A DNA stretch of 64,000 nucleotides from Piscirickettsiaceae bacterium CG07_land_8_20_14_0_80_44_28 (lineage in GTDB: Bacteria; Pseudomonadota; Gammaproteobacteria; Thiomicrospirales; Thiomicrospiraceae). The stretch is taken from the NCBI GenBank assembly GCA_002779995.1, contig PEWX01000115.1:20016-84015 (forward strand). Reading direction: 5' to 3'. Below the pieces are notes generated by a model that ran no database searches, was not told the DNA's origin, and was given only the letters and a program-made list of their open reading frames with translations. This document shows, in pieces, positions 1,575 to 61,688 of this stretch (the first letter of the stretch is position 1; each line of letters begins with the position of its first letter). The translations under genes and the position numbers were made by a program.

Positions 1575-3089
1575 TTAGTGCTGTAGTCGTCTATATACCG
1601 AATACCTGCTCAAAAGATTCAAAGCCATCATTTTAAGCGGGATCAAATCTAAATCGGGCAAGGACTTTGCCCAATCCAATGCTAACCGTTTGACTTGCAG
1701 CGACGTTCGACCATAAAAACAGTCATTCAAGCCGGCAACCAATAACGCAGCTTGATCTATAGCACCATAGCGATTTTCAAACCAATTCAACCACTGGCCT
1801 AAACTTTGTGAGGATCCTTCACCGCCATCTAAGCCAGGGGCATTCAATAATAGCCAGGCCTGGCTATTATTTGTCCACACTTGAATCGCCTTCCATATTT
1901 CTTCGCTCTGTTTTGCCTGACGTAAGGCGTGCAACAGACGGCGTTTTAAATATACTGCCCGAAGCAGCTGCAAAACCACCATCAAGCCCATTGCCATCAG
2001 GAGTATCCAAAGTGCTTTTGCCAGCCAAATCATCCAACTCGGTACCGATAAAACCCCTTGAGAATCGACAAACTGATCAACCAACTTACCGGTTTCCACG
2101 TCAAAATAGCTCAACCTGAGAGGCGGGAACCTTACCCAACCATATTGATTGACTCGAAAAGGTTGTTCAATTTTCATACTCGAATGCAGACCATCAAGCT
2201 GAATATTGCTAACCAGCCATTTTGATGCGCTCAACCACTCGAATCCTTGCTGTGACGGCAATCCCTCGATTAAATTTGGAAAATCTTTTAAGGGTAAATC
2301 CGTGCCATCCAATCGCCACCGCCAGATCTGTAATGCGCCTTTTTCAACCCAATACTTAGGAAATTCTGACGTTAACTGTAGCTTTCCGACAGGGAGGTTT
2401 CTGGGTACAAATCCTGGCAAAGGTTGCACTCGAATATTGATTGGCGGTGCCACAAACAACCATTGCTGTTGCGTGGCGTTCCTCACCCAAAACCTGGGTG
2501 AGGACACTGAAAATTCACCCGTTTCGATTAACTGTACCCCACTGGTGTAACGCCATTGATGGCCTAAAATACCCGATCTGCCATCCTCTTTGGCTGTTTC
2601 CAGCCATTGAACGTTTCCCTGACCATTTTCAGGCAACTCTACGCTAATCGAAAATTCGGCATCTTCTGCCAAAACTTGTGTCCGCCAATAGACCACTTGA
2701 TTTTGATAGGCTCTTTCATCGGTTTTTGGTGCCTGCCAGACCACCTTTATCGCCGGGTTTTCAGTCACCTCAATCACTGGCGGTTGATAGTGCTTTGGCC
2801 CCAATCGAATGGGATTTAAGGTTATTAGCCCGGGATGATAAGGAACCATTTTAATCCGCAACCGATCTCCTCCCCCAAACATGCGCTCAATATAAAAGGA
2901 CTGTTTTAATTCCGTCAAGTCAGCCTCTTCTAAAGCTGACTCTATCCCGGGACCTTCTAATACCCAAGTCACTGCTTGACCCATAAACACCTGGTTGGGA
3001 GCCATACGTATCTCATCTGCCCAAACAACGGAGACACTCAGCAATAGCCCCACCAGTAAAGTCAGTCGCCGCCATCTCTTCGCTACCAT
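1575..3089 (-). CDS. BatD-like protein, last gene of Bat-like operon A
   Basis: 504 aa. Has a signal peptide (LLLSVSVVWA), a large extracytoplasmic domain, one C-terminal TM helix and a cytoplasmic tail. It overlaps the upstream VWA-TPR gene by 7 nt and has the same architecture as ORF 22500-24197. Confidence 0.65.
   Translation of the reverse strand: MVAKRWRRLTLLVGLLLSVSVVWADEIRMAPNQVFMGQAVTWVLEGPGIESALEEADLTELKQSFYIERMFGGGDRLRIKMVPYHPGLITLNPIRLGPKHYQPPVIEVTENPAIKVVWQAPKTDERAYQNQVVYWRTQVLAEDAEFSISVELPENGQGNVQWLETAKEDGRSGILGHQWRYTSGVQLIETGEFSVSSPRFWVRNATQQQWLFVAPPINIRVQPLPGFVPRNLPVGKLQLTSEFPKYWVEKGALQIWRWRLDGTDLPLKDFPNLIEGLPSQQGFEWLSASKWLVSNIQLDGLHSSMKIEQPFRVNQYGWVRFPPLRLSYFDVETGKLVDQFVDSQGVLSVPSWMIWLAKALWILLMAMGLMVVLQLLRAVYLKRRLLHALRQAKQSEEIWKAIQVWTNNSQAWLLLNAPGLDGGEGSSQSLGQWLNWFENRYGAIDQAALLVAGLNDCFYGRTSLQVKRLALDWAKSLPDLDLIPLKMMALNLLSRYSVYRRLQH
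1846..1871. repeat. Perfect 26-bp palindrome AATAATAGCCAGGCCTGGCTATTATT (core CCAGGCCTGG at 1854-1863), inside the BatD-like CDS
   Basis: Read directly from the sequence; the reverse complement is identical. Encodes SQAW on the minus strand. Confidence 0.95.
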
Positions 3090-5044
3090 GGTTGCACACC
3101 AGGTAAAGGGTGAGATTCCATTTGTCGAGCTTGAAACCCTTCTTCTCGTTCAAACAAATGCTTCAGCAACGCCAATTGATTGTCTTGTATGGCTTGCATA
3201 TTTTTGTCAAACTGCTCTATCCGTTTTCTACGTTGTTGTTGATCCAAAATCGCATTCGCTGAGCTGTTCAATGCAAAAGATTGCGGTGATTTAAGGGTGA
3301 AGTCGGTTGGGTCTTCTGCTTCGGGTAACACAAATTCTTTACCCTCCATCTCGCCTTCAGGCGAATCTCCTGAGGCGCCTTCTCCCGCACCGGGATCGGG
3401 TTTTTGTCCACCATAAAAAGCCCCTTCATTATCACGACTGTTTTTACCACGCCCTTGCCCTTCACCCTGTTGTTGATTTTGTTGTTGACCCGATTGGCGT
3501 TGTCGTGCTTTTTGTGCCAAGTCTAGATTATGCTTGGCTTTTTCATAATTTGGTTTATACAATAATGCTTGTTGATAAGACTCAATTGCATGTGCAAACA
3601 ATCCCGCTTTATAAAAAGTATTTCCCAAATTAAACAAAGCATAAGCACGCTTTTGATCAGATTCAGCTTGCATGGCTGCCTGTTGAAAATACACCACAGC
3701 TGATTCATAATCCTGCTTGCGATAAGCCGATGCACCCGCACCCAATATGCCATTAAAATAGCTTAAATCCTGATACGTTTGCTCGGCCTCATCATACCGC
3801 TGTGATTGAAAAGCATCATAAGCACGTTGTTCCTGCTTGACCGACGTTTGTTGCATCCATTGTGCTCTAACAGGATCACTTCCCCCCATAACGAAAAAGA
3901 AACTAACCCCCATTACCCCCATCAATAAAGGCTGTTGAGACTTTTTATTTCGTCTATTTCCCAAGAAATTCAGCGGATAAAAAGCCCACAATAACGCAAA
4001 AAATGCCAGCGCAATAAAGGGCTTATGATGATCCTTCCATATCGGCTTTGAAGACTGTTCAGATCTCGCTTGCGCTTGCGCACTGATATCCTTTAAAAAC
4101 CCTTCCAAAAAAGCTAACGACTCACCGGCTATCAAAGTTCGGCCTTGCCATTGCTCTGCGAGTTTTTCAAGCGAATCCGACGCTAACTGAGTCATCACCT
4201 TGCGACCATTCACATGTAAAGCGCCTGTCGGATGCGCCTGGCTTGGAATCACAGTCGGTTGTGGTTGGCCAACGCCAATCACACGTAGCTGACCCGGAAA
4301 CACCTTTTTGACTTTCAATGGCGATGATTGATTATTGGCAATATTCGACGGTTGACCCCCATCAGTAAAAAGCAATAATATTTGAGTTTTCCCTGCCGTC
4401 TGTTGTAAATGGGATAAACCAAATGCAATCGCATCGTCTGCCTGAGAGCCTAATGTCGGCAAAATGCCGGGTCGCACCAAATTGAGATAATATTGGAATA
4501 ATTCACGGTCATAACTCAAAGGCGCGACCAAATGCGGCCTGCCGGCATAGACCATTAACCCAACTCGATCATTGGCTTCTAAACGGTTTACCAACGACTC
4601 TATCAAAGCCTTCGCGTGCAAAAACCGATTCGGCGCGACATCCTGTGCCATCATTGAACGAGAGGCATCCATTGCCACCAAAATATCCACACCGGAACGG
4701 CTGATTTGCTCGGGAGAAGGCACTAGGGTTCTTGGACCCGCCAACGCAATCACCATAGCCATCCAAGCCAGCATTATCAAGCCTTTGGGTTGCACAAACC
4801 TACCGAAAAAACGCCCAGGCCTGGTGGTTTTTAACGCTTTTTTGGCATCCATATTGGGAACCTTAACCCAGGGTAATAAATGATCTTGTGCATAGAGGTT
4901 ATTGCGATGACGTCGCCAACTAAACGCCAAAACGCCCCAAACAAACGGAAGCAACAACAGCCAAAGGAGATCACTATCACGCCACTGCCAGGCTAAAAAG
5001 GTCTCGATCACACGCCCTCCCGTTGTAGCCGTTTCGCGACCCAT
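3083..5044 (-). CDS. VWA-domain plus TPR-repeat protein (BatB/BatC-like fusion), operon A
   Basis: 653 aa. Has N-terminal TM helices, a VWA domain with MIDAS motif DASRS, a central TM segment, TPR repeats (YDEAEQTYQD..., YESAVVYFQQ..., FAHAIESYQQALLYKPN), and a Q/G/E-rich low-complexity tail. An alternative GTG start at 5011 forms a GTGA overlap with the upstream stop. Confidence 0.8.
   Translation of the reverse strand: MGRETATTGGRVIETFLAWQWRDSDLLWLLLLPFVWGVLAFSWRRHRNNLYAQDHLLPWVKVPNMDAKKALKTTRPGRFFGRFVQPKGLIMLAWMAMVIALAGPRTLVPSPEQISRSGVDILVAMDASRSMMAQDVAPNRFLHAKALIESLVNRLEANDRVGLMVYAGRPHLVAPLSYDRELFQYYLNLVRPGILPTLGSQADDAIAFGLSHLQQTAGKTQILLLFTDGGQPSNIANNQSSPLKVKKVFPGQLRVIGVGQPQPTVIPSQAHPTGALHVNGRKVMTQLASDSLEKLAEQWQGRTLIAGESLAFLEGFLKDISAQAQARSEQSSKPIWKDHHKPFIALAFFALLWAFYPLNFLGNRRNKKSQQPLLMGVMGVSFFFVMGGSDPVRAQWMQQTSVKQEQRAYDAFQSQRYDEAEQTYQDLSYFNGILGAGASAYRKQDYESAVVYFQQAAMQAESDQKRAYALFNLGNTFYKAGLFAHAIESYQQALLYKPNYEKAKHNLDLAQKARQRQSGQQQNQQQGEGQGRGKNSRDNEGAFYGGQKPDPGAGEGASGDSPEGEMEGKEFVLPEAEDPTDFTLKSPQSFALNSSANAILDQQQRRKRIEQFDKNMQAIQDNQLALLKHLFEREEGFQARQMESHPLPGVQPW
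4815..4824. repeat. CCAGGCCTGG palindrome copy (exact), inside the VWA-TPR CDS
   Basis: Flanks are aaaaacgc / tggttttt. Coding frame is T-R-P-G on the minus strand. Confidence 0.95.
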
Positions 5045-6105
5045 TGCATCCAGCCAAAATACAGCATAAACACGCCAAAACTGAGCACTAATAATTCATT
5101 AACAAGTGAACGCCATTGAAATTTAGCGCTGGTGACGGGCACTTCAACGCCTTCTGTTTGATCTATTTGAGCGAGAACGGCCTGCAAATCCTCTCTGCCG
5201 CCAATACGATAGTAACGCCCACCTGTCTGTTCCGCGATTGTCTTTAAAGGCGATGCCTCCAGCGTTTGATAAAGCAAGCCGCTAAATTCGCGTTGATCAG
5301 CAGATGCCTGCTCCCCACCCACACCAATGGTATAAATCGGCACATTGAGTCCTTGTGCATAATTAATGGCTTCCGATATCGGAATGCGACTGTCACGCGT
5401 CATTCCATCCGATATCAATACCACTACCCGATTCTGAGTGGTCTCGGTTGCTCGCTCTGTTTGCTTTAATGCCAAGCCTAATGCCTCGCCTATTGCTTCG
5501 TCCGTTCTCCCCGCCAGATAGGGTCTCAAGCGTTTCAGCATTAACCTTGTTGTGTGATTGTCTGAGGTTAGCGGCATTAATGTATAAGCCGACTCCGCAT
5601 ACAAGATCAAACTAAATCGATTGCCACGCATTCCCAAAATAAATTGATCCAACACGGATTTAATCGCATCTAACCTCGTTGCCGAAATGCCAGAGACTTG
5701 ATAGTCTTCCAACCCCATACTCACCGATGTTTCAACCACCATAACAATATCCCTAACGGTTTTTGTTTGCGATTCCGGGGGCAGCTCCACTTGATAAACG
5801 GGTTCCGCCAAGGCAGTTATTAACAAACCCAATAATAACCAACGTAATAAGTGCAATAAAAGCTGCTGCCACCGCATCGCTTTAACGGGTGGCGTTCTAA
5901 AAGCCATTCGATCAATCAATGAATGGCGAAACACCATCGCCTGTGCTTGTGCCACTTGTTGCCAATCCGTCTGACCGGGACGAAACCGATGCCATAGCGC
6001 CAACAAGGCTAATCCCCCCCAGCCGGCAAACCATTCCGGGTGCAAAAAATGCACTTGATCCCAATGTTTCACCCATTCCAATAATCCTAAGACATCAATC
6101 ATCAT
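5008..6105 (-). CDS. VWA-domain membrane protein (BatA-like), operon A
   Basis: 365 aa. Has N-terminal TM helices, a VWA domain (MIDAS position reads ETSVS rather than DxSxS), and a C-terminal TM helix. It overlaps both neighbours. Confidence 0.8.
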   Translation of the reverse strand: MMIDVLGLLEWVKHWDQVHFLHPEWFAGWGGLALLALWHRFRPGQTDWQQVAQAQAMVFRHSLIDRMAFRTPPVKAMRWQQLLLHLLRWLLLGLLITALAEPVYQVELPPESQTKTVRDIVMVVETSVSMGLEDYQVSGISATRLDAIKSVLDQFILGMRGNRFSLILYAESAYTLMPLTSDNHTTRLMLKRLRPYLAGRTDEAIGEALGLALKQTERATETTQNRVVVLISDGMTRDSRIPISEAINYAQGLNVPIYTIGVGGEQASADQREFSGLLYQTLEASPLKTIAEQTGGRYYRIGGREDLQAVLAQIDQTEGVEVPVTSAKFQWRSLVNELLVLSFGVFMLYFGWMQWVAKRLQREGV

Positions 6106-6604
6106 TGCACCCTTTGCGAAAACTTAAACGGCAAAGGAGCTTCTGAAATGCAGTGGCTAAAACCCATGTCAGTTTTGGGCGGTGCTTTGATAACACCTGA
6201 TCAAATTGTTGCAATAAGGCGCTAAAGGTTTCACGTGAAACGCCCGTTTTAGAAAAGCAGGCCTGGTTAATGAGTTGCGATAATTCAGCCGCCGTCACCA
6301 TCGGAATCAACTGATGGCGCTGTGCTAACAAAAAGGTTTGATAGACTTTATTTTGAACTTTTTGACGTTCAACTAAGGTTGCTGATTTTGTGAAGCGCCT
6401 AAGCTGATGACGCAGTTGAAGCTGTAGCCTGATTCTTAACCAATAGTGAGTCATTGCCCAATAGATCCCAGTCAATATCACCACCACGATCAGAATCAGT
6501 AACACATTCTGACCCATCCCCAGCCAATCGATACCCGGTGCCAAAGGCAACTCAATATCCATTAATTGTGTTTCATCTACTTTAGGCGTAGCTGAATGAG
6601 ACAT
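6095..6604 (-). CDS. DUF4381-like small membrane protein, operon A
   Basis: 169 aa. Has the motif IELPLAPGIDW followed by a single TM helix, at the same operon position and with the same pattern as ORF 19096-19566 (IYIPEAIGWWPP). Confidence 0.6.
   Translation of the reverse strand: MSHSATPKVDETQLMDIELPLAPGIDWLGMGQNVLLILIVVVILTGIYWAMTHYWLRIRLQLQLRHQLRRFTKSATLVERQKVQNKVYQTFLLAQRHQLIPMVTAAELSQLINQACFSKTGVSRETFSALLQQFDQVLSKHRPKLTWVLATAFQKLLCRLSFRKGCNDD
6257..6266. repeat. One-mismatch copy of the palindrome (GCAGGCCTGG) in the DUF4381-like CDS
   Basis: Encodes NQAC on the minus strand. It sits at the position homologous to the exact copy at 19398 (GQAW) in the paralog. Confidence 0.8.
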
Positions 6605-7583: not shown

Positions 7584-7586
7584 TAA

Positions 7587-8588
7587 CTAGTTGCTCGCCA
7601 ATGAATTAAACGCATGGTCTGCTGATAGTGGAACCGGAACCAATTCCATAATCTTGTTAATAACCCCCTCTTCTGTCCACTGTTTAGCACGACCTGAAAA
7701 ACTGACTCGAATACGATGGCGTAGTACATCCGGTAAAAGGGCAATGACATCATCGGGGGTTACATAATCGCGACCCACTAACCAAGCTTTGGCACTGGCG
7801 GCATGCAATAGCGACAAAGAGGCACGAGGCGAGGCGCCAATTTCTAGTACGCCGGCTAAAGATTCATCCCATTGCTGCAAGCGCCGCGTTGCGCCGGTTA
7901 AGGCAACAATATAGTGTTCGACCGCTTCTGAAACATATTGTTCAGAAATTTGATGTCGAGCTTCTAAAACATCCTTTGGCGTAATTAAGGCATTCAACTC
8001 CGCGACATCTTCACCAAAATGCCGTGCGCGATCCCGCCTTAAAATCATCAGCTCTTCGTCTTCAGACGGATAATCCAGTTGCACATGTAACATAAAACGA
8101 TCTAATTGAGCTTCAGGCAGCGGATAGGTACCGCTTTGCTCTAAGGGATTTTGGGTCGCCATGACAATAAATAAATCTGGCAAAGTTCGTGTTACCCCGC
8201 CCGCCGTGACTTGTTTTTCCGCCATGGCTTCAAGCAACGCCGATTGCACTTTAGGGGGGGCGCGATTGATTTCATCGGCCAAAATGATTTCGTGAAAAAT
8301 AGGCCCTTTCACAAAGGTCAGCCGACCCGTATTGGTTTCCAAAATATCGGAACCCGTCACATCTCCCGGCATTAAATCCGGCGTAAACTGAATACGCTGA
8401 AAACTAGCCTTAACACTGTCCGACAGCGTTTTCACCGCTGTGGTTTTTGCCAGGCCTGGTGGTCCTTCAAGCAAGAGATGACCGCCCGTCAACAGCGCAA
8501 TAATCATTCGATCCAATAAATCTTCTTGACCAACAATCACTTGTTGTAAGTGTGCCTTAAGTTGTTGAAATTTGGGGTAAGTGACCAT
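7587..8588 (-). CDS. MoxR-family AAA+ ATPase, first gene of Bat-like operon A
   Basis: 333 aa. Has Walker A GPPGLAKT, Walker B ILADEINRA, and the MoxR signatures QFTPDLMPGDVTG and ATQNPLEQSGTYPLPEAQLDRF. GGAGAG lies upstream of the ATG. Confidence 0.95.
   Translation of the reverse strand: MVTYPKFQQLKAHLQQVIVGQEDLLDRMIIALLTGGHLLLEGPPGLAKTTAVKTLSDSVKASFQRIQFTPDLMPGDVTGSDILETNTGRLTFVKGPIFHEIILADEINRAPPKVQSALLEAMAEKQVTAGGVTRTLPDLFIVMATQNPLEQSGTYPLPEAQLDRFMLHVQLDYPSEDEELMILRRDRARHFGEDVAELNALITPKDVLEARHQISEQYVSEAVEHYIVALTGATRRLQQWDESLAGVLEIGASPRASLSLLHAASAKAWLVGRDYVTPDDVIALLPDVLRHRIRVSFSGRAKQWTEEGVINKIMELVPVPLSADHAFNSLASN
8450..8459. repeat. CCAGGCCTGG palindrome copy (exact), in the MoxR Walker A codons
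   Basis: Encodes P-G-L of GPPGLAKT. The same codons are used in the paralog at 17352. Confidence 0.95.
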
Positions 8589-13120: not shown

Positions 13121-14062
13121 ATGAATAATCGCAACTTGAGATCTTTAGGCTTTAACCCTATGCGCCCAAACCCCCTACCCAAAACACCGCTGCGACTCTT
13201 TTTTAAAGCACTAGCCACCCAACCGAAATTATTGCAACTCAGTTTTTTCTGGTTACCGATGATTTCTGGTTTTTTGCTACTGATTGCGGGAGCGGTTTAT
13301 GGCTATGAAACCGAAATTGCCAGACCCAGTATGGTGTATATGGGCGTGCCCAAAACCCAACAGAACTTAGACAATTTAACCCATATTCTGCGCAATCAAG
13401 GTTTTATGCTCGCCTATTCCGAAAAACTGGCCAATCCGCTTTGGGTGACTTATCAAGTCACTCAAAGCCAAAAACCTTTTGGCAAACGCCCCCGTTTTCA
13501 AACCGACTGGCGTTCCCTAAAACGCATTCGATACCAAGACTATACAGGCAGTGGTTACAGTCGTGGTCACAATGCCCCCAATTACGTCATTGCCAGCCGC
13601 TATGGTTATAAAGCGCAACAACAAACCTTTTTAATGACCAATATTTCACCGCAACTGACAGAGTTTAATACCAAAATTTGGCAACGCCTTGAGGAGGTCA
13701 GTGCAGATTATTTTTCAAAATGGTATCCCAAATTTTGGGTAATGACCGGGCCTATTTTTGATCCCAAACCCAAATGGCTAACCACTGCTAAAATTGCAAT
13801 TCCGAAGGCCTTTTATAAAATTTTTATTCGCCCGGCGGACAAAGGAATCTCGCCAATTGCTTTGGCTTTTGTTATGCCGCAAACCGCGCCTGAAGATGGA
13901 AATTTGTTAGACTATGTCACCACCATTGATGAAGTTGAATCGCTAACAGGCATTGATTTTTTTTGGCAACTGGATGATCGGATTGAAGAGACCCTGGAAG
14001 CCTCTAAAAATGACCAGGCCTGGCGACTTTCCGAAGTGGCGCAATTACCGAGCCGTTATTAA
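13121..14062 (+). CDS. Membrane-anchored DNA/RNA non-specific endonuclease (EndoG/NucA family)
   Basis: 313 aa. Has an N-terminal TM anchor and an active-site-like segment GYSRGHNAPN (the family motif is DRGH, with N downstream). Confidence 0.85.
   Translation: MNNRNLRSLGFNPMRPNPLPKTPLRLFFKALATQPKLLQLSFFWLPMISGFLLLIAGAVYGYETEIARPSMVYMGVPKTQQNLDNLTHILRNQGFMLAYSEKLANPLWVTYQVTQSQKPFGKRPRFQTDWRSLKRIRYQDYTGSGYSRGHNAPNYVIASRYGYKAQQQTFLMTNISPQLTEFNTKIWQRLEEVSADYFSKWYPKFWVMTGPIFDPKPKWLTTAKIAIPKAFYKIFIRPADKGISPIALAFVMPQTAPEDGNLLDYVTTIDEVESLTGIDFFWQLDDRIEETLEASKNDQAWRLSEVAQLPSRY
14014..14023. repeat. CCAGGCCTGG palindrome copy (exact), inside the nuclease CDS
   Basis: Flanks are aaaaatga / cgactttc. 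Encodes K-N-D-Q-A-W. Confidence 0.95.
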
Positions 14063-17136: not shown

Positions 17137-17164
17137 TTGAGAATTGTTTTAAAGCTCTTATAAT
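17137..17164 (+). promoter_or_regulatory. Sigma70-type promoter for Bat-like operon B
   Basis: TTGAGA (17137-17142), a 16-nt spacer, then TATAAT (17159-17164). The ORF-track ATG at 17163 lies inside the -10 box, so it is unlikely to be the real start. Confidence 0.5.
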
Positions 17165-17210
17165 GTTGCAATTGATTTATCAACACTGCCCTATCGAAAC
17201 AGGAACGAAG

Positions 17211-18182
17211 ATGTCATCACTTTCAGAATTACACCATAAAGTTCATAGCTTACTGGCACACTTAGATCAGCAAATTATTGGTCAATCACACTTAACACAA
17301 CGCATGCTCATAGCGCTACTCGCTGAGGGGCATATTTTGGTTGAAGGCCCCCCAGGCCTGGCCAAAACCAAGGCGATTAAAACCTTGGCAGGGCTGATTG
17401 AAGGAGACTATCACCGCATTCAATTTACCCCTGACTTACTGCCTTCAGATATTACCGGTACCGATATTTTTCACCAAAAAACCGGGGAATTTAGCTTGCA
17501 AAAAGGGCCGATTTTTCACAATTTGATTTTGGCAGATGAAATTAATCGCGCACCCGCCAAAGTGCAGTCTGCTCTGCTTGAAGCCATGGCAGAACATCAA
17601 GTCACTGTCGGCCAAAAAACCTTGTCGATGGCCAAACTGTTTATGGTGATGGCCACCCAAAACCCCATTGAGCAAGAAGGCACCTACCCACTCCCTGAAG
17701 CGCAACTGGATCGTTTTATGATGCACCTGCGTATTGATTATCCAGACAGTGAAGCGGAAAAGCGGATTCTCGAATTGGTGGAATCAGAGGCAAAAGCCAC
17801 ACACTCTTTAGCTGTTGAAATGCTTTCCCAGCAGGAATTGTTTCAAATTCGCCAAGATATTTTGAACCTTTACATGTCTGAAGACACCAAAACCTATCTG
17901 GTGGAATTGGTTATGGCAACCCGTCACGCTGAAAAATACAACCCTGAGTTGGCCAGCGCGATTGAGTATGGTGTCAGCCCTAGGGCAACCACTGCATTAT
18001 CGCGGGCAGCCAGAGCTTTGGCCTGGCTAAACGGCCAAACCTTTGTGACCCCGGCAGAAGTTCAAGCGGTAGTGCACGACGTGTTTCGTCATCGACTATT
18101 GCTGAGTTTTGAGGCGGAAGCCACGGGTAAAACCGTTGATGCCATTATTGATGAATTAATTGCACGGGTACCCGTTATCTAA
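17211..18182 (+). CDS. MoxR-family AAA+ ATPase, first gene of Bat-like operon B
   Basis: Has Walker A GPPGLAKT, Walker B ILADEINRA, QFTPDLLPSDITG and ATQNPIEQEGTYPLPEAQLDRF. The start is moved to the ATG at 17211 (MSSLSE), which is preceded by AGGAA. By eye, roughly half of residues are identical to the operon A MoxR. Confidence 0.9.
   Translation: MSSLSELHHKVHSLLAHLDQQIIGQSHLTQRMLIALLAEGHILVEGPPGLAKTKAIKTLAGLIEGDYHRIQFTPDLLPSDITGTDIFHQKTGEFSLQKGPIFHNLILADEINRAPAKVQSALLEAMAEHQVTVGQKTLSMAKLFMVMATQNPIEQEGTYPLPEAQLDRFMMHLRIDYPDSEAEKRILELVESEAKATHSLAVEMLSQQELFQIRQDILNLYMSEDTKTYLVELVMATRHAEKYNPELASAIEYGVSPRATTALSRAARALAWLNGQTFVTPAEVQAVVHDVFRHRLLLSFEAEATGKTVDAIIDELIARVPVI
17352..17361. repeat. CCAGGCCTGG palindrome copy (exact), in the MoxR Walker A codons
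   Basis: Encodes P-G-L of GPPGLAKT. Confidence 0.95.
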
Positions 18183-19099
18183 TGTCTGAAAGCCCGCAAC
18201 TGTATAGTCAACTTGAAAACTTACTGGCTTGGCGATTTCAACTGAAACGCTATCGCTTAAGCCCCCAGCAAAAGTTAATCGCCAGTAAAGGCGGCTACCA
18301 ACAAGCCGTGCGTAAAGGCAGAGGCATGGCGTTTTTAGAAGTGCGCGAATACACTCCGGGTGATGAAATTCGTCATATTGACTGGAAGGTCAGTGCACGC
18401 ACCCAGAAGCCACACACCAAAGTGTTTGCCGAAGAACTGGAAACCCCTGTGATCTGTGTTATCGAACAAACGCCCCCGTTATTTTTTGGCTCAAATGTCC
18501 GCTTTAAAGCCGACCAAGCACTCAATCTCATGGCAATACTCGGTTGGATCAGCTTACACAGTGGAGATCGTTTTGGCGGGGCAGTGTTTAACCATCTAAC
18601 CCATCAATGGTTAGAACCCAAACATCAGCTCAAAACACTGATGTATTTTTTACAACAAGCCATTGATTTGCAATCGCAACTCAATAGTCCCGGCCAATCG
18701 CAATCCACCCACTGGACAACGCAGTTAGCACAGTGCCAAAAGAGACTTCGGCCTGGCAGCCGATTGATTTTAATCGGCGATTTTATTCACCAGCCACCTA
18801 ATTTCATCCAGCAATTGAGACAATTGAAAAAACATACCGATATCACCCTAATTCATATCAGCGATCCGATTGAGAAACACTTGCCGGATCAAGGCGTCTT
18901 GACGTTAAGCAACGGAAACACCCTGCTCCACCTTAACAGCAGTGACCCAAAACAACGCCAAGCCTATGCCTTATCCTATCAAAACGCATGGCAAGGATTA
19001 CAACAACAATTGCAACCCCTTCATATCCCTTTAGTGGATATTTCAACCGACCAAGACCCTCTGCAAGGGTTAATCGCGCAAGGGGTTGTGCACCGATGA
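18182..19099 (+). CDS. DUF58 family protein, operon B
   Basis: 305 aa. Has the motif YTPGDEIRHIDWKVSART..TKVFAEE. Its start overlaps the MoxR stop. Confidence 0.85.
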   Translation: MSESPQLYSQLENLLAWRFQLKRYRLSPQQKLIASKGGYQQAVRKGRGMAFLEVREYTPGDEIRHIDWKVSARTQKPHTKVFAEELETPVICVIEQTPPLFFGSNVRFKADQALNLMAILGWISLHSGDRFGGAVFNHLTHQWLEPKHQLKTLMYFLQQAIDLQSQLNSPGQSQSTHWTTQLAQCQKRLRPGSRLILIGDFIHQPPNFIQQLRQLKKHTDITLIHISDPIEKHLPDQGVLTLSNGNTLLHLNSSDPKQRQAYALSYQNAWQGLQQQLQPLHIPLVDISTDQDPLQGLIAQGVVHR

Positions 19100-22494: not shown

Positions 22495-22499
22495 CCACT

Positions 22500-44144: not shown

Positions 44145-44456
44145 ATGCTTGAAAATATTTTAGCTATATTCATTTTAATCGGTGCCTTCTTTACCCTTGT
44201 AGGTTCAATTGGCTTGATTAAATTACCTGATTTTTATATGCGCCTACATGGGCCAACCAAAGCAACCACTTTAGGAGTGGGTTCAATTTTAGTCGCTTCA
44301 GCAATATATTTCAGTCAATCAGATAGTGGCATCAGTGCTCATGAAGTTCTTGTTACATTATTTCTATTTATAACCGCACCCATTAGTGCCCACTTAATGG
44401 CTAAAGCCGCATTGCATATTCAAACGCCTCAAAGCCAAAAAACACAACAAAAATGA
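44145..44456 (+). CDS. mrpG: Mrp antiporter subunit G
   Basis: 103 aa. Has the motif LPDFYMRLHGPTKATTLG. Confidence 0.85.
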   Translation: MLENILAIFILIGAFFTLVGSIGLIKLPDFYMRLHGPTKATTLGVGSILVASAIYFSQSDSGISAHEVLVTLFLFITAPISAHLMAKAALHIQTPQSQKTQQK

Positions 44457-44478
44457 CCAAGCCTGGTCATTTTTTATT
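44453..44478. terminator. Bidirectional rho-independent terminator between convergent mrpG and mlaA, built on a one-mismatch palindrome copy (CCAAGCCTGG, 44457-44466)
   Basis: Stem ATGACCA / TGGTCAT with loop AGCC, an A-run upstream and TTTTTTATT downstream. The mrpG stop lies inside the left arm and the mlaA stop lies in the T-run. Confidence 0.7.
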
Positions 44479-45205
44479 CATAATTGAAATCATCTAAATC
44501 CGGTGCAGGGGGATTACCGTTATAAATCAAATTGGTCCGATACTGTAAATAACTTTCTCGCATAAAAATATACGGATCTGGCTGTTGTTTAACTTCCGCT
44601 AATAACATTTCCACTTTCGTATAATCATCAAAACTTTCTGCAACAAATAGATAAAACTGACCATAACCATCGGTTTGAATAATGTCATTATAAGATGGAT
44701 TATAACTGCTATCAGCGACTCTGCCGAGTAAATCTCGTGTGGTATAAGGTCCCACCAAAGGCAGCATAATATAATTAGATTCTGTCCACCAACCCCATAC
44801 TGCTAAAGTTTGTCCTAAATCTTCTTTTTGGTAAGGTAATCCTGCCGGCGTCGCAATATCAATCAATCCCAATAAACCAAAGGTACTGTTTATTGTAAAA
44901 CGCATAAAACTGCTTAAACTGCTTTCTATTTCGCCCTGTAACAATGCATTTACGATATTGAGCGGTTCATTTAAGTTATTAAAAAAATTACTAACGCCCG
45001 TCCGAGCCGGGGACGGTACAACCGTTTTATAGCCCTCTACCAATGGTTTTCCAATCACATTATGAAAATGCAAATTGAATTGGAACATGGCTCGATTGAA
45101 GTTTTCATAGGGATCTTGATTGTTTGTCGCTGTATTTGACCCTTGAGCAAAACCAATGGCTGGTAAAAATAAAAAAATAGATAATAAATAAGTTTTGAGT
45201 TTCAT
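44474..45205 (-). CDS. mlaA: MlaA/VacJ family protein
   Basis: 243 aa. Has DPYENFNRAMFQFN and SSYNP.., which are typical of VacJ. The signal peptide ends AIGFAQG, with no lipobox cysteine. Confidence 0.85.
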   Translation of the reverse strand: MKLKTYLLSIFLFLPAIGFAQGSNTATNNQDPYENFNRAMFQFNLHFHNVIGKPLVEGYKTVVPSPARTGVSNFFNNLNEPLNIVNALLQGEIESSLSSFMRFTINSTFGLLGLIDIATPAGLPYQKEDLGQTLAVWGWWTESNYIMLPLVGPYTTRDLLGRVADSSYNPSYNDIIQTDGYGQFYLFVAESFDDYTKVEMLLAEVKQQPDPYIFMRESYLQYRTNLIYNGNPPAPDLDDFNYE

Positions 45206-48468: not shown

Positions 48469-48482
48469 TTAAAGTGATTAAA

Positions 48483-48560: not shown

Positions 48561-48588
48561 TAATAATGACCAGGCCTAGTCATTTTTA
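48561..48588. repeat. One-mismatch extended palindrome copy (TAATAATGACCAGGCCTAGTCATTTTTA; core 48570-48579)
   Basis: Directly abuts the right end of the MITE-like element. It lies in the gap between dsbA and the alsS-like gene. Confidence 0.8.
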
Positions 48589-48632
48589 ATAAGTAATGGG
48601 TTGATTATAAGCCTTAGTTAAAAGGAATCGAT

Positions 48633-48658
48633 AAAAAAAATCCCCAAAAATGGGGATT
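48633..48658 (-). terminator. Rho-independent terminator of dsbA
   Basis: On the minus strand, AATCCCCA-TTTT-TGGGGATT (8-bp stem) is followed by TTTTTTAT, about 45 nt after the dsbA stop. Confidence 0.8.
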
Positions 48659-48703
48659 TAATAATGAATGAATCTGTTCTATTTGATCACGTTAACGTTA
48701 GGT

Positions 48704-49327
48704 TTAACGTTCAACTAAAATATCAACCAGTCTCCATAAATCTTCTCGTGATGTTGCCATAGGCACATCGGTTAAATATTTACCATTGATAACAACTGCC
48801 GGAACACCATCTATACCAAAGTTTTGAGTGGCCTGCTTGGCTTTAGAAACCGCAGAAGAAACCTGAAAACTTTTAAACATATTTTTATAATCGTCAGCTT
48901 TTATACCTAAAGGCTGAACAAATTTTGCTAATTCGTCTAAAGAATAAATACGCCTTTTATCTCGATGCAGTGCATCAAAGTAACGAGCGTGAAATGCTTT
49001 TTCAATACCTAAAAATTTTGCTGTATAAAAAACCCTCGCCATAAAGACCCAATTGGGATTATCGAGTACAGCTGGCATTCGTTCAAAATGAACCTCTTCC
49101 GGTTTGGTTTTTAACCATTGATGAAGACTGGGTTCTAAATCATAGCAATGAGGACAACCATAAAAGAATATTTCAACCACCTGTTTTTGATGGGGTGCAA
49201 TGGATTGTGGGGTTGGAATTAAACGATATTCAACCCCTTCCATTATGTCTGGTTGCGCATAACTTAAAGTTGTTTGCATCAACGATATCATTCCAATCAA
49301 AAAGGGCAGAATCCACTTTTTTAACAT
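48704..49327 (-). CDS. dsbA: Thiol:disulfide interchange protein DsbA
   Basis: 207 aa. Has a signal peptide and the thioredoxin-fold active site FFYGCPHCY. Confidence 0.9.
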   Translation of the reverse strand: MLKKWILPFLIGMISLMQTTLSYAQPDIMEGVEYRLIPTPQSIAPHQKQVVEIFFYGCPHCYDLEPSLHQWLKTKPEEVHFERMPAVLDNPNWVFMARVFYTAKFLGIEKAFHARYFDALHRDKRRIYSLDELAKFVQPLGIKADDYKNMFKSFQVSSAVSKAKQATQNFGIDGVPAVVINGKYLTDVPMATSREDLWRLVDILVER

Positions 49328-49342
49328 AGTCGTTTACCTTAT

Positions 49343-52646: not shown

Positions 52647-53270
52647 ATGCAACATCCGTTATACCAGCAAGCCCATTATTTAAAATCTGCGCCTAATCTC
52701 AATCATTGCCCTGATGATGAAGGCATTGAAGTGGCTTTTGCCGGTCGTTCTAACGCCGGAAAATCCAGTGCTTTGAATGTGATTACCTCGCAAAAATCTC
52801 TAGCGAAAACCAGTAAAACCCCTGGTCGTACTCAATTAATCAATTTTTTTGAGTGTGATGAACACCGTAAACTCGTTGATTTACCGGGTTATGGTTATGC
52901 CAAGGTGAATATTGAAACCAAACGAAATTGGGAACAAAGTCTATCGGAATATATTGAAAAACGTGCCGCTTTAAAAGGGTTGGTGATGATGGTCGATTGT
53001 CGTATGCCACCGACACAGATTGATTTAACCTTATTAGATTGGACTTTGAGCTTAGCGTTACCCGTTCATGTTTTGCTGACTAAATCAGATAAATTGAAAA
53101 AAGGGCCGGCACAAAACAGCTTATTAAAGTTTCGACAGTTGCTTACCGATCAATATCCACACGCCACAGCACAATTGTTTTCATCTTTAAAGCGACAGGG
53201 GTTAGAAGAAGTTTGGGCAAAACTGGATGAATGGATGGCATATCAATCCCCGGAAAAGCTTCAAAAATAG
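52647..53270 (+). CDS. engB: Ribosome biogenesis GTP-binding protein YihA/EngB
   Basis: 207 aa. Has G1 GRSNAGKSS, G3 DLPGYG and G4 TKSDK. Confidence 0.95.
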   Translation: MQHPLYQQAHYLKSAPNLNHCPDDEGIEVAFAGRSNAGKSSALNVITSQKSLAKTSKTPGRTQLINFFECDEHRKLVDLPGYGYAKVNIETKRNWEQSLSEYIEKRAALKGLVMMVDCRMPPTQIDLTLLDWTLSLALPVHVLLTKSDKLKKGPAQNSLLKFRQLLTDQYPHATAQLFSSLKRQGLEEVWAKLDEWMAYQSPEKLQK

Positions 53271-53280
53271 CCAGGCCTGG
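53271..53280. repeat. CCAGGCCTGG palindrome copy (exact), immediately after the engB stop codon
   Basis: Flanks are caaaaatag / taaaattt. Confidence 0.95.
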
Positions 53281-53288
53281 TAAAATTT

Positions 53289-54181: not shown

Positions 54182-57004
54182 CTAATGTGCTTCATCCCAA
54201 TTAGAGCCTTGGCCTATGTCTACAATAAGTGGCACCTTTAAGGTTAAAGCGGATTCCATAATAGATTTGATGTGCTTTTTTGACTCAGCAATATCCTTTT
54301 CCGCAATTTCAAAGACCAGCTCATCATGCACTTGCATCAGCATTTTAATGTCACAAGTGGTGTGATCGAGCCAATGTTGCATTTTGATCATTGCGGTTTT
54401 GATAATATCGGCGGCGGTGCCTTGCATAGGGGCATTAATGGCGGTTCTTTCGGCATATTGCCTAAGTTGGCCATTTTTAGCATTAATGTCGGGTAAATAG
54501 AGTCGGCGCCCCATTAAGGTTTCAACATAGCCGGTTTGTTTGGCATTTTCTTTGGTGGATTCCATATAGTTGGCCACCCCGGGATAACGAGCAAAATAAA
54601 GGTTAATATATTCTTGAGCCAGCCCGCGGCTGATATTCAGTTGTTTGGCTAGCCCAAACGCGGACATGCCATAAATCAAGCCGAAATTGACTGCTTTGGC
54701 ACTGCGGCGCTGTTCCTTAGTGACGTCATCAAGTGGCGTATTAAAAATTTCTGCAGCGGTGGCTTGGTGAATGTCTTTTCCTTCAGAAAAAGCCTTTAAT
54801 AAACTGGCATCGCCCGATAGATGCGCCATGATGCGTAATTCAATTTGAGAATAATCGGCGGCTAATAATTGATAGCCCGGTGGGGCGATAAAGGCTTGAC
54901 GAATACGTCGACCCTCGGCACTACGTATCGGAATATTTTGTAAATTGGGTTCGGTCGAGGAGAGGCGTCCGGTTGAGGCTATCGCCTGTTGGTAAGAAGT
55001 GTGGACGCGCCCCGTTTGGGGATTGATTTGCTTTGGTAAAGAATCGGTATAAGTGGATTTTAGCTTTGCCAGGCTACGGTATTCTAAGATCAAGGACGGC
55101 AGTTCAAACCCTTGTTCTGCTAATTGTACTAATACGGGTTCCGCTGTGGAGGGTTGTCCCTTCGGGGTTTTTTTGACAACAGGGATGTCTAATTTTTCAA
55201 ATAGCACTTCTTGCAGTTGCTTTGAAGAATTGAGATTAAATTCCGTGCCGGCAATCAAATGGGCTTGTTGTTCAAGTTCGGCCAATTTTTGGCTGAGTTC
55301 ATAAGATTGATCTGCTAACATTTGACGGTCAATGAAAACCCCATTGCGCTCCATTTTTGCCAAGACCGGCAGTAATGGCATTTCAATGTCGGTAAAAATT
55401 TTATGTAATGTCGGTTCGGCCTGTAATTTTGGCAATAAAGTTTGATGAAGCTGAAGCGTAATATCCGCATCTTCGGCGGCATAGGGTGAAGCCGCTTCCA
55501 ATTCAATTTGATTAAAGGTTTTCTGTTTTTTCCCCGTTCCGGCAATGTCTTTAAAGTGAATGGTGTTGCGGTTGAGGTAGGTCAGTGCCAAATCGTCCAT
55601 ATTATGGCGGGTTGCAACACTGTTAAAACAATAAGATTCCAGCATGGTGTCATAGGCGATACCTTGAACATCAATGCCAATATTTTTAAAGATATGCCAG
55701 TCATATTTAAAGTTTTGACCGACTTTTTTGAGCGCGGGATTTTCCAAAATCGGTTTCAGTTTGGCTAACACTTCCTGAAGGGGGAGTTGTTCTGGTGCGT
55801 CTTCATAATCGTGGGTTAAGGGCACATAAGCGGCAAAAACCTGCCAGGCCTGGTCGTTTTTTTCTGCATAGGCAAAGCTGATCCCAACAATTTTCGCTTC
55901 CATGGCATTTAAAGAAGTGGTTTCGGTATCAATTGCAAACACCTCCGAGGCTTCGAGATTTTTGAGCCACGCATCGAAAGTTGACCAATCAAGAAGGGTT
56001 TCATAAGGCGTGGATGTGATTTTGGGGTTATCTGTCACAGAAGATGGCGCAGTCGATTTTGGGGATTGACCATTCGTCACGGTTTCAGAGTGGGCTTTGC
56101 GGCCACTGCTTTTGCTAAAAGGCAGTTCGCCTTTTAACACGCGGCTTAACCAGTTGCGTAAATCATATTCAGAAAACAGCGCTTCCAGTGCGTCCATATC
56201 CGCTTCATGGCGTTTAATATCATTCAGTGCAATCGGTAAATCACAATCTAAGCGGATGGTCGTCAGCTGTTGAGACAGTTTAAGTTGGTCTAAATTGGCA
56301 CGCAAATTTTCACCGATCTTGCCTTTAATTTCATCGGCATGGTCAATCAAGTTATCAATAGAACCATATTCTGCAAGCCATTTTGCAGCCGTTTTAGGCC
56401 CACACTTAGGAATACCGGGAATGTTGTCGCTACTGTCGCCCATTAAAGCGAGATAATCAATAATTTGTTCAGGTTTCACGTGAAACTTTTCAAACACACT
56501 ATCGGGTGTCATCAAGGTATCATTCATAGTGTTAACGAGGGTGATATGTTCATTCACTAATTGCGCCATGTCTTTATCACCGGTTGACAGTAGCGCAGCC
56601 ATTTTGGCTTGGGTGGCCTGGTGCGCCAGCGTGCCCATCACATCATCAGCTTCGACGCCATCAATCACTAATAGGGGAATGCCTAAGGCTTTAATGATTT
56701 CATGAATCGGTTCAATTTGAATACGCAGTTCGTCTGGCATGGGTGGACGATGGGCTTTGTAGTCTTGATAAAGTTCATGGCGAAAATTTTTACCCTTAGC
56801 ATCAAACACCACTGCAATCCGTTCAGGTTGGTATTGCTCCAATAGCTTACCAATCATATTAATGACGCCGAAAATGGCGCCGGTAGCATGGCCTTTTGAG
56901 TTGGTTAAAGGCGGCATCGCATGAAATGCGCGAAATAGATAGGATGAGCCATCCACCAAAATAAACGGGCTGTCGGGGTTGAATGCAGGAAGGATTTGAG
57001 TCAT
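54182..57004 (-). CDS. polA: DNA polymerase I
   Basis: 940 aa. Has a 5'-nuclease domain, a 3'-5' exonuclease domain (FAIDTETTSL), and polymerase motifs A (LLAADYSQIELRIMAH), B (RRSAKAVNFGLIYG) and C (QVHDELVFE). Confidence 0.98.
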   Translation of the reverse strand: MTQILPAFNPDSPFILVDGSSYLFRAFHAMPPLTNSKGHATGAIFGVINMIGKLLEQYQPERIAVVFDAKGKNFRHELYQDYKAHRPPMPDELRIQIEPIHEIIKALGIPLLVIDGVEADDVMGTLAHQATQAKMAALLSTGDKDMAQLVNEHITLVNTMNDTLMTPDSVFEKFHVKPEQIIDYLALMGDSSDNIPGIPKCGPKTAAKWLAEYGSIDNLIDHADEIKGKIGENLRANLDQLKLSQQLTTIRLDCDLPIALNDIKRHEADMDALEALFSEYDLRNWLSRVLKGELPFSKSSGRKAHSETVTNGQSPKSTAPSSVTDNPKITSTPYETLLDWSTFDAWLKNLEASEVFAIDTETTSLNAMEAKIVGISFAYAEKNDQAWQVFAAYVPLTHDYEDAPEQLPLQEVLAKLKPILENPALKKVGQNFKYDWHIFKNIGIDVQGIAYDTMLESYCFNSVATRHNMDDLALTYLNRNTIHFKDIAGTGKKQKTFNQIELEAASPYAAEDADITLQLHQTLLPKLQAEPTLHKIFTDIEMPLLPVLAKMERNGVFIDRQMLADQSYELSQKLAELEQQAHLIAGTEFNLNSSKQLQEVLFEKLDIPVVKKTPKGQPSTAEPVLVQLAEQGFELPSLILEYRSLAKLKSTYTDSLPKQINPQTGRVHTSYQQAIASTGRLSSTEPNLQNIPIRSAEGRRIRQAFIAPPGYQLLAADYSQIELRIMAHLSGDASLLKAFSEGKDIHQATAAEIFNTPLDDVTKEQRRSAKAVNFGLIYGMSAFGLAKQLNISRGLAQEYINLYFARYPGVANYMESTKENAKQTGYVETLMGRRLYLPDINAKNGQLRQYAERTAINAPMQGTAADIIKTAMIKMQHWLDHTTCDIKMLMQVHDELVFEIAEKDIAESKKHIKSIMESALTLKVPLIVDIGQGSNWDEAH
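55854..55863. repeat. CCAGGCCTGG palindrome copy (exact), inside polA
   Basis: Flanks are caaaaacctg / tcgttttt. Encodes K-N-D-Q-A-W on the minus strand. Confidence 0.95.
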
Positions 57005-60991: not shown

Positions 60992-61588
60992 TTATTTTTT
61001 TAGAAAACGTTTTGCAATCCAGTAATCAATACTGAAATAACGTCCACCACCTAAAATAACCAAGGTTAAAAGCATGAGTAAATAGGTCACAGCCCATTCT
61101 ATGCCATTATTGCTAATGACAAAACTCCCTGTTTCAGTTAGCCACTCATAGTGACCATGTTGTTGTAATAAGGATTTGGCGGCTTCTAGTCGTTCCATTG
61201 CGCCATCAATATTGGCGCTAGCCCAAGGCGACATAGGGTCGTGAATCGCTTGCCAGCCGTTTTGAAGATGCACGGAAAAGATCGCCACTAACATGGTCAC
61301 GATCAATGGAATACTTGCCCAACGGGTTGCTAATCCAAGCAATAATAACATAGCACCACCGACTTCCGCAGCAATGGCCAAGCTGGCCATTAGCTCTGGG
61401 AAAGGTAAGCCCAAGCCCCATTCTGAGTTGCCAAACCATTCGACCATCCCTGCAAATCCGGCAATTTTATTGGTACCTGCAACCCAAAACACAGCGGCTA
61501 AATACAAGCGAATAGGCAGGGTTGCTAAGAAATCTAACCGAGTTGTTGTTTGGATCATAACTTGTTGAATCTTAATGAGCCACTGCAT
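60992..61588 (-). CDS. DoxX-family membrane protein
   Basis: Four predicted TM helices with DoxX-like segments (LPIRLYLAAVFWVAGTNK, LAIAAEVGGAMLLLLGLATRWASIPL) and a soluble insertion before the last helix. The ATG at 61588 (MQWLIK), preceded by AAGGAA, is preferred over the GTG at 61618. Confidence 0.65.
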   Translation of the reverse strand: MQWLIKIQQVMIQTTTRLDFLATLPIRLYLAAVFWVAGTNKIAGFAGMVEWFGNSEWGLGLPFPELMASLAIAAEVGGAMLLLLGLATRWASIPLIVTMLVAIFSVHLQNGWQAIHDPMSPWASANIDGAMERLEAAKSLLQQHGHYEWLTETGSFVISNNGIEWAVTYLLMLLTLVILGGGRYFSIDYWIAKRFLKK

Positions 61589-61678
61589 AAGAAATTCCTT
61601 ATATAATTGAATGTTCACTCAAAAAAGATATTAACAATTTATTTCTTAAAAAACAACATAAATGAGAATCATTTTTAC

Positions 61679-61688
61679 CCAGGCCTGG
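61679..61688. repeat. CCAGGCCTGG palindrome copy (exact), intergenic between the 2OG oxygenase and DoxX genes
   Basis: Part of a 12-bp palindrome, CCCAGGCCTGGG. Flanks are catttta / cattatt. Confidence 0.95.

Follow-up and report, generated by a model that had tools for sequence, protein, structure and literature searches.

What is the ten-letter palindrome CCAGGCCTGG, and by what process did it come to be repeated so exactly, within genes as well as between them, along a single stretch of bacterial DNA? The stretch in question, called the window here, comprises 64,000 nucleotides of contig PEWX01000115.1 (assembly GCA_002779995.1). Gene content (including ResB/CcsA, MlaA, an Mnh antiporter and two MoxR-DUF58-VWA-BatD operons) and PrlC homology (81% with Hydrogenovibrio sp. 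SC-1, 79% with strain 3SP14C1) together place it in an uncultured, Hydrogenovibrio-like member of the Thiomicrospiraceae (Gammaproteobacteria). With high confidence, the word was found to be a highly iterated palindrome that occurs genome-wide and is specific to one family, the sulfur-oxidising Thiomicrospiraceae (Hydrogenovibrio, Thiomicrorhabdus, Thiomicrospira and Thiosulfativibrio). Its most likely role would be that of a self-DNA tag by which clade members' own DNA is favoured in uptake or recombination, in the manner of the uptake signal sequences (USS) and the DNA uptake sequences (DUS), and this assignment is held tentatively, at somewhat less than an even chance.

The window was found to contain 11 exact and five one-mismatch copies of CCAGGCCTGG, which was also its commonest 10-mer. 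The exact copies start at 1854, 4815, 8450, 14014, 17352, 19398, 23891, 30567, 53271, 55844 and 61679, and the one-mismatch copies at 6257, 26668, 40904, 44457 and 48570. An earlier examination of the letters alone, the sequence-only reading, had given all five one-mismatch starts and 10 of the 11 exact starts correctly, the remaining one (55854) being a typing error for 55844. The 100 dinucleotide-preserving shuffles of the window contained a mean of 0.09 exact copies (maximum 1) and of 1.23 one-mismatch copies, whereas Markov models of orders 0-4 trained on the window predicted 0.02-0.06 exact copies, and models of orders 5 and 6, with the copies masked in training, predicted 0.07 and 0.2, respectively. 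Chance was rejected on these figures. The over-representation described by the sequence-only reading holds in this window at every order from 0 to 6, including the 4th to 6th orders at which that reading had wished to see it challenged.

The shorter words within the palindrome did not share its abundance. AGGCCT was found 19 times in the window, 14 of them within the octamer CAGGCCTG, and the five outside the motif were mildly low against about 10 in our own order-0 estimate. CCAGG alone was observed 38 times (41 expected) and CCTGG 39 times (38 expected), and GGCC was below the Markov expectation. A very short patch (VSP, Dcm/Vsr) repair bias was rejected, as CCAGG and CCTGG were both at expectation. 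Restriction avoidance was uninformative, with AGGCCT mildly low outside the motif and GGCC below expectation.

The invariant core of the element was found to be the octamer CAGGCCTG, which is extended to CCAGGCCTGG in the lineage of the window, and the consensus dyad of this lineage, AAAWWTRA-CCAGGCCTGG-TYAWWTTT, was found to span 26 bp with sharp boundaries. The half-site profiles, taken from halves free of seed bias (148 genic and 101 intergenic), contained A, A, A, A/T, A/T, T (or C), a weak G and A (almost never T), followed by CCAGG. Counted from the 10-mer, the flank was informative from -8 to -1 and carried nothing at -9 or further out, and the profile was alike in the genic and the intergenic half-sites. 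The A-rich left and T-rich right flanks noticed earlier are real and end at -8, and the copy at 1846-1871 is a perfect 26-bp palindrome, as had been stated. Among the pooled copies, 184 were exact and 66 contained one mismatch, which lay on the outermost base in 38 of the 66 (about 3 expected), and variants at the inner positions of the 10-mer were close to chance. The A-tract 11-13 bp from the dyad centre and the T 8 bp from it were kept in every dialect, including that with the different inner palindrome CCGGCCGG described below; the outer architecture of the dyad appears to be older than the inner specificity.

One genome from each of 185,579 species was scanned for the extended half-site AAAAATGACCAGGCCTGG, and about 83 of the 101 stretches found belonged to Hydrogenovibrio, Thiomicrorhabdus, Thiomicrospira, Thiosulfatimonas or Thiotrichales metagenome-assembled genomes (MAGs), many of them containing the full 26-mer AAAAATGACCAGGCCTGGTCATTTTT. 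Seed-selected blocks from 16 Thiomicrospiraceae genomes (GC 42-58%) contained 0-2.9 extra, non-seed copies per 10 kb, three of the 16 genomes, each sampled over at most 8 kb, being without any; no extra copy was found in 125 kb from 18 unrelated genomes. The extended half-site was likewise absent from 2.9 million viral contigs, among which the phages of Thiomicrospiraceae may be poorly sampled, and carriage of the motif by phages was rejected on this weak evidence.

Loci of 22 kb centred on prlC were chosen regardless of the motif. In this motif-blind sampling, window included, CAGGCCTG was found in eight species at 1.8-5.0 per 10 kb, with 4-14 copies per locus against 0.15-0.46 expected (0.15-0.26 for the 22-kb loci). 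The count in 22 kb was 4 in Hydrogenovibrio SC-1, 5 in Thiosulfativibrio zosterae, 8 in Thiomicrorhabdus aquaedulcis, 9 in Thiomicrospira microaerophila, 10 in Thiomicrorhabdus immobilis, and 11 each in Thiomicrospira pelophila and Thiomicrorhabdus chilensis. Sharing with related species, which the sequence-only reading had proposed to check, thus extends over the family.

The species were found to differ in dialect. The 10-mer was free at its outer base in T. chilensis, so that no exact copies were present there, whereas in T. pelophila the flanks were CA and TG without a T-tract. The 22-kb locus of Thiomicrorhabdus indica contained no CAGGCCTG but 13 copies of CCGGCCGG (0.08 expected), flanked by AAAWTTTYA and TRAAAWTTT; CCGGCCGG is a replacement palindrome in the same outer 26-bp architecture. 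In-place conversion of one dialect into the other was not seen at the T. indica sites in the few comparable genes. The 22 kb of Thiosulfatimonas sediminis contained neither CAGGCCTG nor CCGGCCGG, and no other enriched GC-rich palindrome was found there; at the density typical of the family, our own Poisson estimate for such an empty sample, a small one, is P of about 0.02. A Thiosulfatimonas MAG carries the motif, unlike the sampled T. sediminis, in which a lineage-specific loss may have occurred.

Within genes, the copies were found to behave as DNA and not as protein sequence. Nine of the 11 exact copies of the window are intragenic, as had been counted earlier, and in the motif-blind 218 kb, from which the genic and intergenic densities were taken, the genic share was 69%; the tolerance of copies inside genes claimed from the letters is confirmed. 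Genic copies occupied all three reading frames with a bias among them, encoding Q-A-W, then P-G-L, then R-P-G. In an unbiased sample, Q-A-W was encoded by CAGGCCTGG (CAG GCC TGG) in 16 of 17 tripeptides, against 1.4 predicted by codon usage, and P-G-L by CCAGGCCTG (CCA GGC CTG) in 5 of 10, against 0.1 predicted. Because three frames are used, copies are also intergenic and codon choice favours the exact word so strongly, the motif acts as a signal at the level of DNA, and not of peptide or RNA.

The genic copies were also found to be conserved by position. The copy in prlC lies in an indel-free conserved block, NNVLKSTQAWSK, of 120 homologues, 100 of which kept Q-A-W; the octamer was kept at this site in 7 of 10 species and was one base off in T. 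chilensis, and third-position conservation in prlC peaked at the codon windows over the motif. Three genic copies could be compared between the window and Hydrogenovibrio SC-1, and all were conserved, the one-mismatch copy 26668 among them. Across eight species, 174 orthologous positions could be aligned, and the octamer was identical at 32% of them; for 3,323 control octamers taken from these genes the figure was 6.1%. As the mean per-base identity at motif positions equalled that of the controls, the conservation is all-or-none. Copies private to T. pelophila, T. chilensis or T. indica could be aligned gap-free to unrelated sequence in other genera, frequently with a change of amino acid. 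The copies are thus created in place by substitution or codon choice, not by insertion, are strongly maintained and turn over between genera. Five copies of the window were overlapped by conspecific metagenome contigs and were all identical there, which is uninformative, the contigs being 99.8-100% identical.

These observations bear on a group of explanations in which the repeats would derive from a mobile or copied element similar to repetitive extragenic palindromic (REP) sequences or miniature inverted-repeat transposable elements (MITE), from a repeated coding module, or from a compositional or repair bias such as VSP at CCWGG. The sequence is palindromic, and copies 8450 and 17352 both lie in the Walker A (GPPGLAKT) of MoxR ATPases that are paralogues of each other, so that these two are not fully independent; but genic copies are free of indels and lie in conserved protein blocks, unrelated proteins carry them in three frames, and Markov orders 0-6 fail to account for the count. 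Insertion of a mobile element was rejected on the lack of indels at genic copies. Origin from a coding module was rejected as only the MoxR Walker-A pair is paralogous; BatD compared with ORF (open reading frame) 1575-3089, and DUF4381 compared with ORF 6095-6604, have the motif at similar relative positions and no significant similarity. The whole group is hardly credible, and the REP-like alternative kept open by the sequence-only reading did not survive, with 69% of the copies intragenic, in frame and without indels.

REP elements and bacterial interspersed mosaic elements (BIME; PMC3686654), as well as the Ssn-associated NTS hairpins (PMC11893778), occur outside genes and are propagated as copies by a dedicated transposase or nuclease. 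They resemble the Thiomicrospiraceae word in being palindromic, abundant and often located at the 3' ends of genes, whereas 69% of its copies lie in frame inside conserved genes and arose by substitution. The Ssn/NTS hairpin system was rejected, its consensus (NTS/SRM) being unrelated and the system extragenic. A known RNA family was rejected as the identity of the motif as well, the window containing no Rfam match; no tRNA was found in it either.

Between genes, the word was found at about 5-fold higher density (1.23 per kb, against 0.25 per kb in genes), with 1.6 per kb in convergent, 1.3 in tandem and 0.95 in divergent intergenic regions. In a larger, seed-selected set, most of the intergenic copies lay 0-65 nt past a stop codon, and in some copies the TGA or TAG of the flank doubled as the stop codon. 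In intergenic copies 6.53 of 10 flank pairs were complementary, above the null of 5.62 (at most 6.11) that the consensus alone would give, whereas genic copies showed no excess (4.07 against 4.15). A stereotyped intrinsic-terminator hairpin could be proposed as the primary function, exerted at the RNA level and with the intragenic copies as by-products. The intergenic density, the position just past stop codons and the co-variation of intergenic flanks towards pairing would all fit it, and so would copy 44457, which has the textbook shape of a bidirectional terminator.

Such a primary RNA-level function is nevertheless very unlikely. The 69% of copies that are intragenic have the same flank consensus without extra complementarity, the synonymous positions of genic copies are conserved across genera, and divergent intergenic regions are enriched as well. 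Most copies of the window fold no better than shuffles, the full terminator shape being found for 44457 only, the flanks of T. pelophila lack a T-tract, and ordinary motif-free terminators are present in the window. For the last three of these reasons that concern the window, namely the single terminator-shaped copy, the shuffle-like folding of most others and the existence of motif-free terminators, the hairpin, as a putative terminator, appears to be a secondary use by a subset of the copies. The terminator-like versions at gene ends mentioned earlier accordingly exist, for some copies.

The spacing of the copies was considered next to their symmetry. No two sites of the window were closer than 1.4 kb (P about 0.001-0.015). 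The spacing had a coefficient of variation of 0.54 over all 16 sites (P 0.0075), though of 1.01 when only the 11 exact copies are taken, in what is a post hoc observation. Close pairs were present in T. pelophila and in a Thiomicrorhabdus MAG, at 75 bp in one case (an exact copy with a one-mismatch copy) and at 32 bp in another; even spacing is suggestive in the window and not general across species. A dimeric DNA-binding protein, abundant, confined to the family and engaged in a chromosomal function (nucleoid structure, segregation or occlusion in the manner of Noc or SlmA), its sites individually selected, would account for the minimum distance, for A-tracts about one helical turn from the dyad centre and for positional conservation above that of controls. 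It is rendered improbable by the extrapolated number of sites, which would run from hundreds to about 1,000 per genome, their core of 8-10 bp hardly varying, where known sets of occlusion or segregation sites are far fewer and less exact, by the rapid turnover of copies between genera, and by the close pairs just mentioned.

A nearer counterpart was found in cyanobacteria, whose highly iterated palindrome HIP1 is GCGATCGC (Xu, Lawrence & Durand 2018, PMC5861425; Elhai 2015, PMC4390886). The alternate HIP of Synechococcus sp. PCC 6312 is CAGGCCTG itself, at 0.37 per kb and an observed/expected ratio of 14.7 (PMC5861425; a 2026 preprint also bears on this HIP), and the same octamer was found at a similar density, 0.18-0.5 per kb, in the Thiomicrospiraceae. 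Both are GC-rich palindromes of coding and non-coding DNA, conserved between genomes above background, HIP1 within and between ORFs (PMC5861425) and the present word as measured on genic copies, and in both some lineages have a replacement palindrome or none. The chance of matching one of the four reported HIP octamers is about 4/256, so the identity hints at a shared cause, for example a transferable enzyme of this specificity. No description of the motif in Thiomicrospiraceae was found in the searched literature, in keeping with the statement of the sequence-only reading that none was known; for the octamer that statement fails, since it has been reported in PCC 6312 (PMC5861425).

The word could accordingly be a gammaproteobacterial counterpart of HIP1 and its alternates, unrelated to uptake and kept up by a cognate DNA methyltransferase, by a repair bias at GGCC, AGGCCT or CCWGG, or by a role in nucleoid or chromosome structure, which is regarded as the main rival explanation, somewhat less likely than the self-DNA tag. 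Besides the shared octamer, the near all-or-none matching is typical of enzyme-type recognition, the spacing is over-dispersed in the window, and the exchange within the family for CCGGCCGG, another GGCC-centred palindrome, parallels the way in which alternate HIPs supplant HIP1. The gathering of one-mismatch variants at the first and last base points in the same direction; the one-off variants of HIP1 are said to be likewise biased to the end positions, in work by Elhai from 2015.

Against it, a rough scan for catalytic motifs, covering about 0.7 Mb of loci from the family, yielded five weak methyltransferase candidates, none convincing, CCWGG is not over-represented, and GGCC is below the Markov expectation. 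The host family belongs to the Gammaproteobacteria, whereas the HIP class has so far been cyanobacterial, and the word differs from HIP1 in standing in a 26-bp dyad with AT-rich flanks, in its 5-fold intergenic enrichment and in the presence of hairpin-extended copies at gene ends. We know of no such flank architecture, intergenic enrichment or hairpin-extended copies described for HIP1. An explanation of this type also names a class and not a mechanism.

The self-DNA tag is suggested by the behaviour of the word, which resembles USS and DUS, as the sequence-only reading had remarked, in substitution in place, AT-rich flanks, clade dialects, intergenic enrichment and reading-frame bias. The USS of Pasteurellaceae arise by mutation, have AT-rich flanks and occur in subclade-specific types (Redfield et al. 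2006, PMC1626085). The Thiomicrospiraceae word shares with them a short exact core with AT-rich flanks, an over-representation of hundreds-fold, origin by mutation in place, subclade variants, tolerance in genes in preferred reading frames and enrichment between genes. It differs from the USS in that these are asymmetric and need two inverted copies for a terminator, whereas each copy here is its own inverted repeat. The USS of H. influenzae have a density about 2-6 times higher than the word, and their intergenic copies can reportedly form terminator hairpins, an observation credited to Smith et al. in 1995.

The DUS of Neisseriaceae are family-wide 10-12-mers with dialects, frequent in terminators just past genes, non-palindromic and read by a monomeric minor pilin. 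They are reportedly treated in this way by Frye et al. in 2013 and Ambur et al. in 2007, and the receptor is said to be ComP, from work by Cehovin et al. in 2013. The Thiomicrospiraceae word is similarly family-wide, common downstream of genes and split into dialects that would imply a co-evolving receptor, but it is palindromic. The motif behaves like USS or DUS and looks like HIP, and membership of neither class is claimed for it.

Several points weigh against the self-DNA tag. No report of natural competence in Thiomicrospiraceae was found in the searched literature, the genome paper of T. crunogena XCL-2 mentions neither competence nor the palindrome, and no competence gene, pilin or DNA methyltransferase was found in the 64-kb window. 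The word is a perfect palindrome like HIP1, whereas the known uptake sequences are asymmetric, and its octamer identity with a cyanobacterial alternate HIP points at least as much to a HIP-type mechanism. Positional conservation can stem from selection on a site-specific function in place of an uptake drive. The DNA of the relatives, finally, consisted of seed-selected 8-kb blocks or prlC neighbourhoods, with genes called as simple ORFs.

If the word is a self-DNA tag, near-matches would arise by mutation, and exact copies would be fixed and preserved by biased uptake or recombination, or by selection for it, building up at sites that the encoded proteins tolerate, and with less restraint immediately downstream of genes, where intergenic versions may be extended into hairpins and serve as putative (bidirectional) terminators. 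A dyad of 26 bp, a core that is matched almost all-or-none and dialects that co-vary point to a reader that would be a symmetric, probably dimeric, sequence-specific protein acting on duplex DNA and co-evolving with the word; its specificity would have drifted in the lineage with the free outer base, switched in T. indica and possibly been lost in T. sediminis. The word would then be the first palindromic DNA-uptake or self-recognition sequence with a dimeric receptor, in a third bacterial family, and since its core equals a cyanobacterial alternate HIP, the HIPs and the proteobacterial uptake sequences would be one phenomenon, possibly by way of a transferable recognition protein. We consider this wider proposal quite doubtful.

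Hyper-abundant exact words inside genes are known in very few lineages (USS, DUS and HIP1), and the function of HIP1 has been a question for 30 years. Hydrogenovibrio and Thiomicrorhabdus represent a culturable, genetically tractable family with a strong word in a defined 26-bp architecture. The switch in T. indica and the empty 22-kb sample of T. sediminis form a natural experiment by which a reader protein becomes searchable by comparative genomics; were uptake or self-recognition the function, the changes between CAGGCCTG, CCGGCCGG and no motif would let that protein be found by phylogenetic profiling. The motif distorts codon and peptide usage, Q-A-W and K-N-D-Q-A-W being almost always motif-encoded, it marks DNA of Thiomicrospiraceae in metagenomes, and constructs may have to carry it if these chemolithoautotrophs are to be engineered efficiently.

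The individual copies of the window are given here as 26-bp spans with their 10-bp cores, no strand being assigned to the palindrome. The copy at 1846..1871 (core 1854-1863, exact) was found to contain the perfect palindrome AATAATAGCCAGGCCTGGCTATTATT and lies in ORF 1575..3089(-), where it encodes Q-A-W; its predicted fold has -19 kcal/mol (z = -3.7). It is followed by the copy at 4807..4832 (core 4815-4824, exact) in the VWA/TPR (BatB-like) gene 3083..5044(-), encoding R-P-G, and by that at 6249..6274 (core 6257-6266) in ORF 6095..6604(-), whose one-mismatch form GCAGGCCTGG leaves the octamer CAGGCCTG intact. The copy at 8442..8467 (core 8450-8459, exact) in the MoxR AAA+ ATPase gene 7587..8588(-) encodes the P-G-L of the Walker A, and the copy at 17344..17369 (core 17352-17361, exact) lies at the paralogous position, in the Walker A (GPPGLAKT) of the second MoxR ATPase, 17163..18182(+).

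Between these two, the copy at 14006..14031 (core 14014-14023, exact) was found near the 3' end of the gene 13121..14062(+), encoding K-N-D-Q-A-W 40 nt before the stop. The product of this gene is a DNA/RNA non-specific endonuclease (Endonuclease_NS, E = 1.5e-37). Some competent bacteria use nucleases of this family in DNA uptake or have uptake modulated by them, and no link is drawn for the gene of the window.

The DUF4381 gene 18988..19566(+) contained the copy at 19390..19415 (core 19398-19407, exact; Q-A-W), and the BatD gene 22488..24197(+) that at 23883..23908 (core 23891-23900, exact; K-N-D-Q-A-W), which was found at the same position in Hydrogenovibrio SC-1 and also in T. chilensis, at just 30% protein identity. 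The copy at 26660..26685 (core 26668-26677), in the MFS transporter gene 26359..27675(-), has the one-mismatch form CCAGGCCTGC, which was identical at the orthologous position of Hydrogenovibrio SC-1. The prlC (oligopeptidase A) gene 29043..31094(-) contained the copy at 30559..30584 (core 30567-30576, exact), encoding the Q-A-W of its conserved block, followed by the copy at 40896..40921 (core 40904-40913, again GCAGGCCTGG) in the gene of the Mnh/Mrp antiporter subunit A, 38624..41443(+). The polA gene 54182..57004(-) contained the copy at 55836..55861 (core 55844-55853, exact), encoding K-N-D-Q-A-W.

The four remaining copies are intergenic. That at 44449..44474 (core 44457-44466, one-mismatch form AAAAATGACCAAGCCTGGTCATTTTT) lies between the convergent genes 44145..44456(+) and MlaA, 44474..45205(-); its predicted hairpin has an 11-bp stem (-11.8 kcal/mol, z = -5.0) and was picked up by the terminator scan. 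The copy at 48562..48587 (core 48570-48579, one-mismatch form CCAGGCCTAG) lies downstream of 48704..49327(-), with the flanks TAATAATGA and TCATTTTTA and a weak fold. About 60 nt from it, at 48638-48659 (-), an ordinary terminator-like hairpin, AAATCCCCATTTTTGGGGATTT, was found, followed by a T-run; termination there is independent of the motif. The copy at 53263..53288 (core 53271-53280, exact) lies between convergent genes, its core immediately following the TAG that ends the GTPase gene 52647..53270(+), and folds with -14.1 kcal/mol (z = -2.3). The copy at 61671..61696 (core 61679-61688, exact) was found 3 nt past the stop of 61692..62342(-), upstream of the DoxX gene 60992..61618(-).

The MoxR-DUF58-(small ORF)-VWA-VWA/TPR-BatD-like operon was present twice in the same gene order, at 1575-8588 (-) and 17163-24197 (+), and three gene pairs of the two operons had the motif at similar relative positions, homology of the site being demonstrable for the MoxR pair only. 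From 32000 to 52000 of the window the GC content dropped from 44-48% to 36-39%, with no exact and three one-mismatch copies (40904, 44457 and 48570). A recent foreign island was rejected for this stretch, at least its 31-41 kb portion being syntenic with Hydrogenovibrio SC-1.

In several genomes of complete or scaffold level (L107, L108, L109, L110, L113 and L114) no more than about 10-115 kb separated the neighbourhood of prlC from the record start, and in T. microaerophila it adjoins rpmH-rnpA-yidC. On these grounds the window is probably origin-proximal, which bears on any claim about genome-wide density. Many metagenomes were found to hold contigs near-identical to the window.

At 60528-60756, a 30-bp tandem repeat of 7.6 copies (96% matches) was found within the gene 60518-60949 (-), which adjoins the DoxX gene. 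The product is a small protein that contains a twin-arginine signal (RRQFLKLAGA) followed by EGKCGGKKEA repeats. Its length was 143 aa in the window and in two metagenome contigs and 133 aa, one unit fewer, in L001, which points to copy-number polymorphism in a predicted Cys-rich periplasmic protein.

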